A stretch of DNA of 64,000 nt from a virus: positions 28,966-92,965 of the IMG/VR virus record IMGVR_UViG_3300035670_000102. One strand, written 5' to 3'. The first letter of the stretch is position 1, and every line of letters begins with the position of its first letter. The notes beneath the pieces are model-generated. The model did no database searches. It had not been told where the DNA came from and was given only the letters and a program-made list of their open reading frames with translations. Position numbers and translations under genes: made by a program. Positions 57,106 through 61,560 of this stretch are shown piece after piece.

Positions 57106-58077
57106 ATGGATTTGATTGACTCCAAGTATATTGGACTCGTTTCGTCACGCTTACAGAAATTTAAAAGAGTTAAGGCAGATCTTTACAATTTCCGGTGTCC
57201 TTTGTGTGGAGACTCTCAAAAAAATAAAAGTAAGGCTAGGGGATACTTATATGCTGTTAAAAACAACACAAACTTTAAGTGTCATAACTGTGGGGCAAGT
57301 TTGTCTTTTAATAATTTTCTTAAACAACTAGACCCATCTCTCCATAAGCAATATACTATGGAGAAGTTTAAAGAGGGTCATACTGGAAAAAATTTTGTTG
57401 TTGAGGAACCTAAGTTTGAATTTACAAAACCAATCTTTAAAAAAAGGGTAGATCTACCTAAAGCATCAGAAATTACGATTGCTAGAGAGTATCTTCAAAA
57501 ACGAAAACTTGACCCAGAAAAGTTTTATTTTGCTGACAAATTTAAGGAGTGGACAAACACACAAAAAGAAACTTTTAGCACTATTGGTAGGGATGAAAGC
57601 CGCATTATTATACCATTGTATGATATAGAATCTAATTTAATAGGGTTTCAGGGAAGATCACTTGGACCCTCACCAAATAAATACATCACCGTGATGCTTT
57701 CCAATGAATCTCCTAAACTTTATGGACTTGAAAAGGTGGATTCTTCAAAAACCATTTACATTGTTGAAGGACCCTTCGACTCAACGCTTATTGAAAATGC
57801 TGTTGCTATGTGTGGGTCCGATATTGATATTAGATCGTTTGGTTGGGGAGATTATATTTGGGTTTTTGATAATGAACCACGCAATAGAGAAATCGTCAAA
57901 CGAATATCAAAAACCATCGATAGAGGCGACAAGGTGATTATTTGGCCAATCAATGTCCATCAAAAAGATATTAATGATATGGTTTTAGCTGGACTTAATG
58001 TTATGGATGTGTTAAAATCAAACACATACTCAGGTTTAGAAGCAAAAATTAAGTTTAACAATTGGAAGAAAGTATGA
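57106..58077 (+). CDS. g61: DNA primase gp61
   Basis: NFRCPLCGDS, CHNCG zinc finger, IVEGPFDS, FDNEPRN, KDINDM. Confidence 0.95.
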   Translation: MDLIDSKYIGLVSSRLQKFKRVKADLYNFRCPLCGDSQKNKSKARGYLYAVKNNTNFKCHNCGASLSFNNFLKQLDPSLHKQYTMEKFKEGHTGKNFVVEEPKFEFTKPIFKKRVDLPKASEITIAREYLQKRKLDPEKFYFADKFKEWTNTQKETFSTIGRDESRIIIPLYDIESNLIGFQGRSLGPSPNKYITVMLSNESPKLYGLEKVDSSKTIYIVEGPFDSTLIENAVAMCGSDIDIRSFGWGDYIWVFDNEPRNREIVKRISKTIDRGDKVIIWPINVHQKDINDMVLAGLNVMDVLKSNTYSGLEAKIKFNNWKKV

Positions 58078-59741
58078 GCAACGGAACAAAAGTCGTCAAA
58101 AGAGATGGTCAAACTGAACCTCTTGATCTTAACAAACTCCACGTTATGGTGGAAGAATCCTGTAAAGATTTAGCAGGTGTGTCAGCATCTCAAGTAGAGA
58201 TGCAATCTGGTATTCAATTTTACAACGGTATTGCTACTGCAGAGATTCAGGAAATTTTAATTCGCTCTGCTTCTGACCTGATTGATTTGGATCACCCCAA
58301 TTATCAATTCGTCGCTGCTCGCCTGCTTCTATTTTCTCTCCGCAAGCAGTTGTTTGGTCGTATGCACGAATCCCCTACAGTCAAGCAACACATTCTTAGT
58401 GCCGTTGAGAAAGGCGTCTATGATGCAGAAATTCTTGACTTGTATACTGACGAAGAGTTTGATAAACTTGAATCATTTATTGATCATAGTCGTGACTACT
58501 TGTTCACCTATGCTGGGCTTAGACAAGTGGTGGATAAGTATCTTGTGCAAGATAGAAGCACTGGTAAACTTTATGAAACGCCACAGTTCATGTATCTTTT
58601 GATTGCGGCGACTATCTTTTCAAAGTATCCTAAAGAAACCCGTCTAGATTACGTTAAGAAGTATTATGACGCAATCTCAAAGCACAAAATCAACATTCCT
58701 ACGCCAATCATGGCAGGTGTTAGAACCCCACTTCGTCAATATGCAAGTTGCGTTCTTGTTGATGTTGATGACACCCTTGATAGCATCTTCAGCTCTGATA
58801 TGGCAATTGGTCGCTATGTTGCTCAAAGAGCAGGAATTGGTATCAACGCAGGTCGCATCAGGGGCATCAACGCTAAAATCAGAGGCGGAGAAGTTCAGCA
58901 TACGGGTGTTGTCCCATTCCTCAAGAAGTTTGAGGCAACTGTCAGGTGTTGTACACAAAACGGGATTCGTGGTGGAAGTGCTACTGTCCACTTTCCAATC
59001 TGGCACCAAGAAATAGAAGATATTCTTGTCTTAAAGAATAATAAAGGAACTGAAGATAATCGTGTTCGTAAATTAGACTACTCTATCCAAATCTCCAAAC
59101 TCTTCTATGAACGATTCATCCGTAACGAAGAAATCTCACTCTTCTCTCCCCACGCTGTTCCTGGTCTGTATGATGCTTTTGGCACTGATGGATTTGACGA
59201 GTTATATCTTCGTTATGAACGAGATGAATCTATTCCAAGAAAAACTATCGGCGCTCAAGAACTCTTTCTGGACCTCCTGAAAGAACGTGCTGAAACTGGT
59301 CGTATCTACATTATGAATATTGACCATTGCAACTCCCACTCTTCCTTTATCGATAAGGTTGAGATGAGTAATCTTTGTGTTGCTGGTGATACTTTGATTT
59401 CAATTAGACACAATTTAAATGATTATTCTGACGAATCAATTTCTAGGGACACCATTGATAAAACAACTGTTATTGAAATTAAAGATCTTGAAAAATTTAG
59501 TAATAACTTATTTGTCAATGATATAAAAGTTCTTTCTTATAACACTGAAACTGGTAAAGAAGAGTGGGCACCTATTACAGCATTTACCCAAACTTCACCA
59601 AAAGCAAAAGTAATGAAAATTACTGATGAAGAAAGTGGTAAGAGTATTGTTGTGACACCAGAGCATAAAGTATTCACCAAAAATCGTGGATATGTGATGG
59701 CAAAAGATTTGGTTGAAACTGATGAATTGGTAATTAATTAA
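58074..59741 (+). CDS. nrdA: Ribonucleotide reductase class Ia alpha subunit, N-terminal half fused to split-intein N part
   Basis: ATP cone VVKRDG, YETPQ, PTPIMAG, ASCVL, ERAETGRIY, ending MSNL then intein block A. Confidence 0.93.
   Translation: MSNGTKVVKRDGQTEPLDLNKLHVMVEESCKDLAGVSASQVEMQSGIQFYNGIATAEIQEILIRSASDLIDLDHPNYQFVAARLLLFSLRKQLFGRMHESPTVKQHILSAVEKGVYDAEILDLYTDEEFDKLESFIDHSRDYLFTYAGLRQVVDKYLVQDRSTGKLYETPQFMYLLIAATIFSKYPKETRLDYVKKYYDAISKHKINIPTPIMAGVRTPLRQYASCVLVDVDDTLDSIFSSDMAIGRYVAQRAGIGINAGRIRGINAKIRGGEVQHTGVVPFLKKFEATVRCCTQNGIRGGSATVHFPIWHQEIEDILVLKNNKGTEDNRVRKLDYSIQISKLFYERFIRNEEISLFSPHAVPGLYDAFGTDGFDELYLRYERDESIPRKTIGAQELFLDLLKERAETGRIYIMNIDHCNSHSSFIDKVEMSNLCVAGDTLISIRHNLNDYSDESISRDTIDKTTVIEIKDLEKFSNNLFVNDIKVLSYNTETGKEEWAPITAFTQTSPKAKVMKITDEESGKSIVVTPEHKVFTKNRGYVMAKDLVETDELVIN
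59376..59738 (+). mobile_element. Split intein N fragment (121 aa)
   Basis: Block A CVAGDTLI, VLSYN, block B VTPEHKVFT..GYV.AKDL...DEL, then stop. Confidence 0.92.
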
Positions 59742-59745
59742 CACA

Positions 59746-60472: not shown

Positions 60473-60564
60473 AGATTGAATATCTTGAAGAAGAAATCCC
60501 AGTTTATGATATTACTGTAGAAGGAACTCATAATTTCTTTGCAAATGATATTCTAGTTCATAAT
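60466..60564 (+). mobile_element. Split intein C fragment (33 aa)
   Basis: Blocks F/G [21 protein letters not shown] followed by Cys+1. Confidence 0.93.
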
Positions 60565-61560
60565 TGTCAGGAAATTACTCTACCAACCAAACCCATTCAG
60601 CATATTGACGATCCTGATGGTGAAATTGCTCTTTGCATCCTTTCTGCTATTAACGTTGGTAAATTGAAATCCAATGATGAATTGGAGAGTCTCTGTGACC
60701 TTACAGTTAGGAGTCTTGACGAACTTATCGATTTTCAGGGATATCCCGTCAGAGCAGCAGAAATAGCCACTAGAGCACGTCGTTCTCTTGGGGTAGGTTA
60801 TATTGGTCTGGCACATTATCTCGCCAAGCACGGCGAACATTACGACGATCCAGGTGCCTGGAAACTAGTGCATGACCTCACTGAGGCATTTCAATATTAT
60901 CTGATTCATGCAACTGTCAATCTTGCAAAAGAGAAAGGTGCTTGTGAATACTCTCACAGAACTAAGTATGGACAAGGTATTCTCCCTATTGATACATACA
61001 AAAAGGACGTTGATGAAATAGTTCCAAATGAGCTTAAGTATGATTGGGAGAGTCTTAGACAGCAAGTACTTCAATATGGAGTGCGGAACTCAACATTGTC
61101 CGCACAGATGCCATCGGAGAGCAGTTCCGTTGTGTCAAATGCCACAAATGGAATTGAACCACCTCGCGGATACTTGTCCGTTAAAAAATCGAAGAAAGGT
61201 CCACTTAAGCAGATTGTTCCCCAGTATCAAACATTTAAGAACAATTATACGCTTTTGTGGGATATGCCTAGCAATCGCGGTTATATTCATATTGTTGCAG
61301 TTATGCAAAAATTCTTTGATCAAGCGATTTCTGGAAACTGGTCATATAATCCAGAAAATTATCCGGATAATGAAGTTCCTACTTCAGTGATGGCACAGGA
61401 CTTATTAACTACATATAAGTACGGTTGGAAAACCAGTTATTATCAAAATACATATGATGCAAAGACTGATGAAGTGGAAGATTCCAAACCATCTCTTACT
61501 GATTTAGTCAATGATATTTTAAGCACGGAGGAAGAAGATTGTGAGTCTTGTAAGATTTAA
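60466..61560 (+). CDS. nrdA: Split-intein C part fused to C-terminal half of ribonucleotide reductase alpha subunit
   Basis: Own SD AGGAG (60455-59); after HN comes CQEI, then [28 protein letters not shown], KTSYY and C-terminal CESC. Confidence 0.93.
   Translation: [364 protein letters not shown]

Follow-up and report, generated by a model that had tools for sequence, protein, structure and literature searches.

NrdJ-1 is a split intein that is experimentally active and widely used for protein ligation, and the characterised pairs of split-intein halves are reported to carry opposite net charges. Closer to the subject of this work are the fractured NrdA loci of Dassa et al. 2009, who described seven cyanophage-like examples, NrdA-1 to NrdA-7 (PMC2677866). 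NrdA-2 has been shown to splice, with cis-splicing of 75-98% and a specific trans-splicing signal according to the supplement of Pinto 2020 (PMC7090010). A different solution to an interrupted reductase gene is found in the Aeh1 system, studied by Friedrich, Gibb, Edgell and co-workers and by Crona et al. 2011 (PMC3045599).

The locus described here lies in a window of 64,000 nucleotides, the whole stretch that was analysed, which covers positions 28,966 to 92,965 of IMG/VR record IMGVR_UViG_3300035670_000102, a linear record of 92,965 bases with a CheckV completeness of 44%. On this ~93-kb T4-like cyanophage contig, a fractured nrdA cassette sits between the primase gene and nrdB (Table 1). 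The cassette very probably represents a cyanophage nrdA whose halves are trans-spliced and whose late-expressed, mobile GIY-YIG gene split a former mini-intein.

Anatomy of the fractured gene

Reading of the ORFs shows that nrdA is interrupted exactly before the codon of the thiyl-radical cysteine, C439 of the E. coli enzyme. The N-extein matches Pfam PF03477, PF00317 and PF02867 (the last over positions 1-213) and shares 92.4% identity with residues 1-434 of NrdA from Synechococcus phage S-SRM01, where the gene is uninterrupted; the C-extein is 90.7% identical to residues 435-766, such that the two tile the S-SRM01 protein as 1-434 plus 435-766 with neither loss nor duplication. Matches of the C-extein to E. 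coli R1 run from residue 438/439 on (E 2.8e-114), and the +1 Cys, at 60565-60567, aligns with residue 439 of the R1 chains (query residue 33 falls on chain residue 438). Likewise, the N half covers the class Ia RNR alpha profile NF006578 from position 3, and the C half covers its positions 438-760. When SNL and CQE are joined in silico, the product reads SNLCQE as in S-SRM01 and aligns to E. coli residues 437-441, the N-x-C-x-E finger-loop motif. The rejoined protein would possess the ATP-cone, all-alpha domain, ten-stranded barrel and finger-loop motif by which a class Ia ribonucleotide reductase alpha subunit is defined. The earlier note had placed NrdA halves with SNL and CQEI ends around a GIY-YIG gene, a reading that the ORF coordinates and domain matches confirm to the base; its description of a complete, intact example in genomic context holds for the locus, which is complete, but not for the genome, which at 44% completeness is partial.

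Table 1. Features of the fractured nrdA locus, in window coordinates
Feature	Position	Strand	Description
N-half ORF	58074-59741	+	Reads ...VEMSNL, then CVAGDT...VVTPEH...DELVIN, stop
nrdA N-extein	58074..59375	+	434 aa; ATP-cone, all-alpha domain and first half of barrel; ends ...VEMSNL
N-intein	59376..59741	+	121 aa + stop (59739-59741); Cys1 59376-59378, block B TPEH, tail DELVIN
RNA hairpin	59746..59799	+	~20 bp; 3' arm stops 1 nt before endonuclease ATG
TATAAATA, T4-type late-promoter box	59770..59777	+	In hairpin loop, 24 nt before endonuclease ATG
Free-standing GIY-YIG gene (putative homing endonuclease)	59801..60472	+	223 aa; catalytic domain 1-92, low-confidence linker, helical C-terminal domain 135-222
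AGGAG Shine-Dalgarno of C-half ORF	60455..60459	+	Within endonuclease 3' end, 6 nt before ATG; direct reading
C-half ORF	60466-61560	+	33-aa C-intein, then CQEI
C-intein	60466..60564	+	33 aa, ends ILVHN
nrdA C-extein	60565..61560	+	331 aa + stop; first residue is +1 Cys, the thiyl-radical Cys (CQEI...)
nrdB (small subunit)	61583..62725	+	Pfam PF00268, E 8.2e-55; directly downstream; relatives align from nrdB ATG

The intervening sequence is in frame and precise relative to S-SRM01 NrdA, and its two ends are recognised separately as intein halves. The N-intein scores 32.8 bits against NCBIfam intein_Nterm TIGR01445 (cut-off 24.5) and the C-intein 40.8 bits against intein_Cterm TIGR01443 (cut-off 15.6); Pfam Intein_splicing PF14890 gives 29.1 and 30.8 on the separate halves, below its gathering score of 35.8, as expected because each is half a domain. 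One ORF ends in a stop at 59739 and the other opens with its own ATG at 60466, which places the intein halves on separate ORFs; the break between them maps to the canonical endonuclease-insertion loop, both the loop seen in contiguous alleles and the place where NrdJ-1 is split. The first 7 nt of the C-intein are shared with the 3' end of the endonuclease gene, and in relatives this overlap is 7-14 bp. Both halves are acidic, with a net charge of -6 each, unlike the characterised pairs, and fast association is therefore not guaranteed. An AF2 model of a contiguous relative (L016) reached a mean pLDDT of 56.7, which is insufficient for a fold search.

The gene between the halves matches Pfam GIY-YIG PF01541 (E 1.8e-12) and scores 54.3 bits against TIGR01453, slightly below the cut-off of 56.05. 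In an AF2 model the N-terminal domain resembles the I-TevI catalytic domain 1mk0 (Foldseek, E 1.3e-4, TM 0.70), and the helical C-terminal domain found no recognisable match in a Foldseek search of the model. Residues Y7, Y18, G20, R29, H33, E77 and N92 are invariant across 12 relatives and presumably correspond to the catalytic residues of I-TevI, the domain thus having the conserved Tyr, Tyr-x-Gly, Arg, Glu and Asn of a GIY-YIG catalytic domain.

The elements that could control this gene are compact. The hairpin in front of it has an MFE of -18.5 kcal/mol (z -4.9; none of 200 shuffles folds equally well) and is kept in ~30 distinct relatives, with 16 consensus pairs and one compensatory change, so that its comparative support is mostly sequence conservation. 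The TATAAATA box in its loop is invariant among relatives. The window holds 11 copies of TATAAATA, a total not above chance (13/100 shuffles), distributed 11:0 on the coding strand and mostly 16-38 nt upstream of an ORF start; it is only this strand bias and these positions that suggest a promoter function for the copies. A scan of 57000-63000 for sigma-70 promoters and terminators gave nothing over shuffled background.

Relatives, selection and coexisting alleles

Fractured nrdA was described in 2009 from short reads of ocean and lake origin (PMC2677866), and the arrangement proves to be frequent in public sequence data. At least 155 related loci are present in IMG/VR, of which 80 were fetched and 77 classified, and the split layout with endonuclease recurs in 61 of the 77, each on an independent contig. 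The endonuclease cluster has 74 members at 90% identity, one of which is found on 62 contigs, and a near-identical endonuclease is also present on a 142-kb contig. None of the cultured cyanophages in the phage collection, which may not show records of the genome analysed here, carries the intein or the endonuclease at 60% identity or more.

The residues on which splicing depends are conserved throughout. Cys1 is present in 79 of 79 relatives, as CV[AS]G[DN]T or CVDGDT; the TxxH of block B likewise in 79 of 79, as TPEH, TPDH or TPGH (TPEH here); and the C-terminal HN followed by Cys in 72 of 72 (here ILVHN before the +1 Cys). Exteins evolve under purifying selection, with dN/dS of 0.04-0.14 against many relatives, and the values for the C-intein (0-0.22), the GIY-YIG gene (0.08-0.38) and the N-intein (0.17-0.65) show purifying selection on both intein halves and on the endonuclease as well.

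The cassette is mobile, and contiguous and split alleles coexist. Nucleotide identity to two relatives (L007 and L008) is 58-84% in the exteins and rises to 97-100% across ~59334 to 60590, and dS of the cassette is far lower than dS of the exteins. This identity step at the cassette borders, together with purifying selection, lends indirect support to site-specific DNA cleavage and homing by the putative endonuclease. Contiguous, in-frame mini-intein alleles are found at the same nrdA site (for example L054 and L049, in which the loop is flanked by GATGAATTGGTA and ATTGAATA), and their sole difference from the split alleles is a loop of ~30 nt, in place of which the split alleles have a stop, the hairpin, the endonuclease gene and an ATG. 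For this comparison the junctions were read directly, a global MAFFT alignment having misplaced the large gap.

Within the same N-intein lineages there are contiguous mini-inteins, split inteins with the endonuclease and, once, a split intein without it. In the last case (L075) the endonuclease gene is lost, and the 5' hairpin arm and the AGGAG box, which relatives retain, are still in place. Contiguous and split states are intermixed on the N-intein tree, where the contiguous label requires at least six changes, and some sister alleles of different state carry near-identical N-inteins. Such mixed states suggest that the endonuclease has probably invaded the intein loop repeatedly.

Proposed splicing, its alternatives and the possible endonuclease target

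We infer as follows how the halves are spliced, when the genes are expressed and what the nuclease cuts. Two polypeptides would be made, NrdA(1-434) followed by the 121-aa IntN, and the 33-aa IntC followed by NrdA(435-765), and IntN and IntC would pair to form a single HINT domain. Cys1 would form a thioester with Leu434, the +1 Cys would attack it, the terminal Asn of IntC would cyclise, and an S-to-N shift would leave a normal peptide bond at SNL-CQEI, whereupon the former +1 nucleophile would take up its role as the reductase's thiyl-radical cysteine. In read-through transcripts the start region of the endonuclease gene may be sequestered in the hairpin; transcripts that start within the loop, at a late promoter there, would be free of the 5' arm, which would confine nuclease synthesis to the late phase of infection. 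Once made, the nuclease would cleave related phage genomes that do not have its gene, and repair would copy the gene together with flanking intein DNA. Entry of the endonuclease gene at the loop is the event that would have split a formerly contiguous mini-intein.

Other readings of the insert were weighed against splicing at the protein level. Members of the endonuclease cluster are labelled 'group I intron endonuclease' in public sources, the endonuclease itself hits TIGR01453, and phage RNR genes often harbour group I introns that carry GIY-YIG genes (PMC3653736), so that the 1.2-kb insert could be such an intron, with an endonuclease ORF, removed at the RNA level. This is exceedingly improbable: both ends of the insert code for canonical intein blocks, in the reading frame of the exteins, mini-inteins exist that are contiguous and in frame, no strong RNA structure other than the 54-nt hairpin is present, and no Rfam family, of group I or group II introns or otherwise, matches within 57500-62500 even at E <= 1. 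The intron reading was rejected on the missing Rfam match and the in-frame intein blocks. An assembly chimera would be a natural worry for an uncultivated viral contig that is 44% complete, yet dozens of independent contigs, drawn from different samples, repeat the order, frames and 7-nt overlap, and so does a cultured Klebsiella phage; given this replication across samples we rejected a metagenome artefact, whose probability is close to nil.

Two further explanations accept the anatomy and dispense with splicing. The NrdA pieces might assemble non-covalently, as in Aeh1, with the intein halves a mere clasp. Aeh1 NrdA-a/NrdA-b (PMC3045599; described in PMC2677866) demonstrates that a fragmented NrdA can function, and some relatives of the present locus have a second nrdA break further downstream that has no intein. 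A clasp, however, would need neither Cys1 nor the terminal Asn, yet the catalytic splicing residues are invariant in 72-79 loci; a break at the radical Cys in the centre of the barrel would, judging from R1 structures, hardly accommodate 154 extra residues; and the homologue NrdA-2 splices, according to the supplement that describes it (PMC7090010). Clasped halves are thus a very unlikely end product. Alternatively, nrdA could be decaying after inactivation by selfish DNA, the halves being pseudogene remnants in a phage that relies on the host RNR, as decay has been suggested for Campylobacter phage nrdA genes (Dwivedi et al. 2013, PMC3653736). Decay is hard to credit for two ORFs that are intact and have their own starts, whose exteins evolve at the low dN/dS given above and jointly cover the whole class Ia profile, and downstream of which nrdB is intact.

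A naturally split class 1 intein directly before the catalytic Cys, with exteins rejoined by predicted trans-splicing to SNL-CQEI, is the reading that the comparisons support. The earlier note had argued that an intein split at this cysteine makes trans-splicing necessary for SNL-CQEI, and that argument gains support from the precise insertion, the invariant splicing residues, purifying selection, the failure to match an intron and the splicing homologue NrdA-2.

As for the endonuclease, intein-less nrdA near the SNLC codons, the target proposed in the earlier note, is only one possibility, and the allele comparisons favour the loop of contiguous mini-inteins at least as strongly. It is possible, though we put it forward tentatively, that intein-less nrdA is not the homing site of the endonuclease, or not its only one, and that the enzyme targets the ~30-nt loop of contiguous mini-intein alleles. 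If so, the enzyme would repeatedly convert cis-splicing into trans-splicing inteins in natural cyanophage populations, inteins would remain permanently split where the nuclease was occasionally lost, and the three stages in single IntN lineages would document, directly and at the population level, how split inteins originate. The sister alleles (contiguous, split with endonuclease, and split without it) could make that origin experimentally testable.

Comparison with described systems

As in Aeh1 nrdA-a/mobE/nrdA-b, the nrdA of a T4-like phage is split here by a free-standing homing endonuclease gene (PMC3045599; PMC2677866), and there, too, a hairpin sequesters the endonuclease ribosome-binding site and contains a late promoter, as that system is summarised in PMC2677866. 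Unlike the present locus, Aeh1 in the same summary has an HNH-type endonuclease and no intein, and its halves remain separate polypeptides (PMC2677866). With I-TevI and the T4 Seg-type free-standing GIY-YIG endonucleases the enzyme shares the GIY-YIG fold and motifs, a linker and a separate C-terminal domain, and mobility with co-conversion of flanks, seen here as the identity step; whereas those genes lie in introns or intergenic regions, this one lies within an intein gene.

Among solved structures NrdJ-1 (PDB 8UBS/9OMB) is the best match to IntN (8UBS, E 6e-17). Its split point is at most 1-2 residues from the split here (...DELV / M...), and the 10 residues at the end of its IntC are identical to those of the present IntC. 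The host gene of NrdJ-1, in contrast, is the class II nrdJ, with the insertion one residue further C-terminal (PMC2677866), and NrdJ-1 does not have the variable insert of ~20-40 aa near the IntN N-terminus. NrdA-2, as given in its supplement, has the same SNL/C junction and is clearly homologous yet diverged, with 20 of 33 IntC residues identical and ~55% identity over the conserved part of IntN by a rough by-eye count on OCR text (PMC7090010). In that source the +1 context is CNE in NrdA-2 against CQE here, and the NrdA-2 IntC is slightly basic against -6 here (PMC7090010). The present locus may thus provide one more candidate split intein, kin to NrdJ-1 and NrdA-2, with a short 33-aa C-fragment and an unusual combination of two acidic halves.

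The fractured NrdA loci of Dassa et al. remain the closest counterparts. In them, as here, a class Ia nrdA closest to cyanophage genes carries the insertion directly N-terminal to the thiyl-radical Cys, the halves are on two ORFs with a free-standing GIY-YIG gene (there also a Vsr-like one) between them on the same strand, and a hairpin with TATAAATA lies upstream of the nuclease gene (PMC2677866). The end of the nuclease gene overlaps the start of IntC by 6-69 bp in those loci and by 7 bp here (PMC2677866), and with an endonuclease between the halves, a hairpin with late box and an overlap, the locus has all that marks their fractured genes. That the class was already known, as had been claimed, is borne out for the gene, site, phage group, endonuclease family, hairpin with late promoter and ORF overlap (PMC2677866). 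The class is not new; new is the population detail, that is, at least 155 relatives, near-identical cassettes in diverged nrdA genes and coexisting allele states.

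The break in nrdA and the case for splicing

The source record, an IMG/VR virus entry, is linear, comprises 92,965 bases and is rated 44% complete, and the window, with a G+C content of 29-44%, is its final 64 kb. The region round nrdA is closest to T4-like myoviruses of Synechococcus and Prochlorococcus. In the best matches, S-SRM01 and S-SKS1, nrdA is uninterrupted and the primase, nrdA and nrdB genes adjoin, and the window matches their nrdA in two pieces, with the insert skipped. Minus-strand ORFs of the region are short and none has support, and no Rfam family matched positions 57500-62500 at E <= 1.

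Genes and TATAAATA boxes of the window
Feature	Position	Strand	Remarks
Primase	57106-58077	+	
nrdA N-half	58074-59741	+	ATP-cone, all-alpha domain, barrel positions 1-213
Spacer	nrdA N-half to GIY-YIG gene	+	59 nt
GIY-YIG gene	59801-60472	+	PF01541
nrdA C-half	60466-61560	+	barrel positions 210-522
nrdB	after nrdA C-half	+	
TATAAATA boxes	945, 18986, 23478, 24892, 34807, 42651, 43818, 55231, 59770, 62872, 63899	+	

The N-half reads through SNL into CVAGDT ... VVTPEH ... DELVIN and a stop codon, and 33 intein residues precede CQEI in the C-half; the two halves pass the cut-offs of the NCBIfam intein N-terminal and C-terminal models. The N-extein corresponds to residues 1-434 of the uninterrupted, 766-aa NrdA of S-SRM01 (92.4% identity) and the C-extein to residues 435-766 (90.7%), which places the insertion precisely at the Leu434/Cys435 junction of SNLCQEI. 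Aligned with E. coli R1 structures, the intein ends at position 438, and the +1 Cys coincides with residue 439, which is the thiyl-radical cysteine. These results bear out the earlier note, which had proposed a split intein at the catalytic Cys with a GIY-YIG gene between the halves, and had read the C-half as an ORF of its own; an AGGAG box lies 6 nt before its ATG. The example also proved intact, as had been suggested, with every splicing residue invariant amongst relatives. In the 80 related IMG/VR loci fetched, of at least 155, Cys1 and TxxH were each found in 79 of 79 relatives and HN/Cys in 72 of 72.

Pairwise dN/dS against 13 relatives was 0.04-0.14 for the exteins, 0-0.22 for the C-intein (IntC), 0.08-0.38 for the endonuclease and 0.17-0.65 for the N-intein (IntN), the last being raised by a variable insert. 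Among solved structures, the NrdJ-1 split intein is nearest to IntN (E 6e-17), and its natural break lies no more than 1-2 residues from the split point here. In Pinto et al. 2020 (PMC7090010 supplementary data), NrdA-2, a homologue that shares the SNL/C junction, spliced in cis at 75-98% and produced a specific signal of trans-splicing. Taken together, the invariant residues, the dN/dS values, NrdJ-1 and the splicing of NrdA-2 lead us to infer strongly that the window's halves trans-splice. Both intein halves are net acidic, -6 each (59376-59738; 60466-60564), with the acidity of IntN coming mostly from its variable insert. Within IntN, TSPKAKVMK...KNRGYVMAK forms a locally basic stretch, a possible partner for the acidic EYLEEE of IntC; such a polarity is the reverse of that reported for NrdA-2 and NrdJ-1 (Dassa et al. 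2009, PMC2677866).

The endonuclease and its expression

The endonuclease is a protein of 223 aa whose GIY-YIG motif residues are unchanged in 12 relatives. In its AF2 model (pLDDT 74) the N-domain resembles the catalytic domain of I-TevI (1mk0, E 1.3e-4), the linker is of low confidence, and the helical C-domain, confidently modeled, had no match in a fold search. The spacer forms a hairpin of ~20 bp (z -4.9) whose loop holds TATAAATA, and the endonuclease ATG begins 1 nt past the 3' arm. The hairpin is kept in ~30 distinct relatives, mostly as sequence conservation with one compensatory pair. The window's 11 copies of TATAAATA all lie on the coding strand, and most precede an ORF start by 16-38 nt, as T4-type late promoters would; their total count alone is not above chance. 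Hairpin and box match the hairpin/late-promoter switch described for Aeh1 mobE and the fractured genes of 2009 (PMC2677866). By this arrangement the endonuclease start site would be hidden in the hairpin on read-through RNA, while late transcripts would start inside the loop, pointing to late expression of the endonuclease. The C-half ORF overlaps the endonuclease stop codon by 7 nt.

Cassette exchange and the origin of the split

Against two relatives (L007, L008) the exteins are 58-84% identical in nucleotide sequence and ~59334-60590 is 97-100% identical; the whole cassette is therefore common to diverged nrdA genes. In four others (L029, L046, L076, L045) near-identity to the window is confined to the 3' portion of IntN, the endonuclease gene and IntC; across the 5' portion of IntN (59424-59600) identity is 33-61%, placing a second exchange boundary within IntN. 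An insert that follows the first strand gives IntN a length of 104-144 aa, depending on the allele. This hypervariable insert (window 59397-59520, residues ~8-48; same region in L004-L083) lowers IntN to 33-61% nucleotide identity between alleles that are >90% identical over the remaining cassette, and acts as a recombination boundary.

At 13 loci the same site holds a contiguous, in-frame mini-intein, whose sole difference from the split alleles is a 9-11-codon loop flanked by ...GATGAATTGGTA and ATTGAATA...; split alleles have in its place ATTAATTAA, the hairpin, the endonuclease gene and ATG(C/T)T(A/T)AAG. The two states are mixed on the IntN tree, with at least 6 changes of the contiguous label, clustering no greater than for shuffled labels, and near-identical sister pairs such as L054 (contiguous) and L041 (split). 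One locus, L075 (4340-4530), has a split intein without an endonuclease gene and keeps the 5' hairpin arm and SD box, in the order IntN stop, 5' arm, AAGGAG immediately next, IntC ATG; this deletion derivative can be compared with gp41-7 in Dassa et al. 2009 (PMC2677866). Together these comparisons support the model put forward in that study, in which a free-standing endonuclease invaded a mini-intein, and suggest many such events, either fresh invasions or spread by recombination. The target cut by the endonuclease may be the intein loop, nrdA that lacks an intein, or both.

Related and published fractured loci

A cultured Klebsiella jumbo phage, KP13-7 (OP617745.1 29349-36654), has the same SNL/C split intein and, with it, a related GIY-YIG gene; its intein reads CVTGETLV...DEIISL-stop, followed by the GIY-YIG gene and an IntC ending ILVHN/C. 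Its nrdA lies in at least 4 coding pieces (ORFs at 1529-7059), several annotated 'hypothetical protein', with another ORF between the pieces at a further downstream break. In nine loci (L016, L017, L052-L054, L056, L059, L062, L077) a second interruption of 1-2 kb, devoid of intein motifs, lies ~45 nt past the intein, behind the C-extein residues ...PIQHIDD; the upstream piece extends into a short tail, ...YKKY.x.TGGVLYDH-stop, and in L017 a near-copy of the tail is found ~2 kb downstream, before nrdA restarts in a different frame. The pattern resembles an intein-less fracture of the Aeh1 type to which tails have been added. L017 (7514-7606) and L060 (7242-7334) also carry, at ~residue 185 of the C-extein, a further IntC-like segment, 39% identical to the window's IntC, so that some relatives have a second nrdA intein site. 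A second free-standing GIY-YIG gene, distantly related (30-38% identity), separates nrdA and nrdB in L004 (3529-4113), L005 (3764-4171), L038 (4699-5076) and L068-L070, the position of mobE in T-even phages.

The locus is of value mainly for its sister alleles, which record the passage from a contiguous intein to a split one. As the earlier note had recognized, the fractured nrdA is not new as a class. In reads from oceans and lakes, Dassa et al. (2009, PMC2677866) described NrdA loci, seven in all and nearest to cyanophage genes, whose intein immediately precedes the thiyl-radical site. In those loci the halves are separated by a GIY-YIG or Vsr-like gene, a hairpin carries TATAAATA, and there is an overlap of 6-69 bp; the window's locus shows every one of these defining features. 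By-eye comparison with NrdA-2 (PMC7090010 supplement) gave 20 of 33 identical residues in IntC and ~55% identity in the conserved part of IntN, and the window's allele is possibly already amongst those published.
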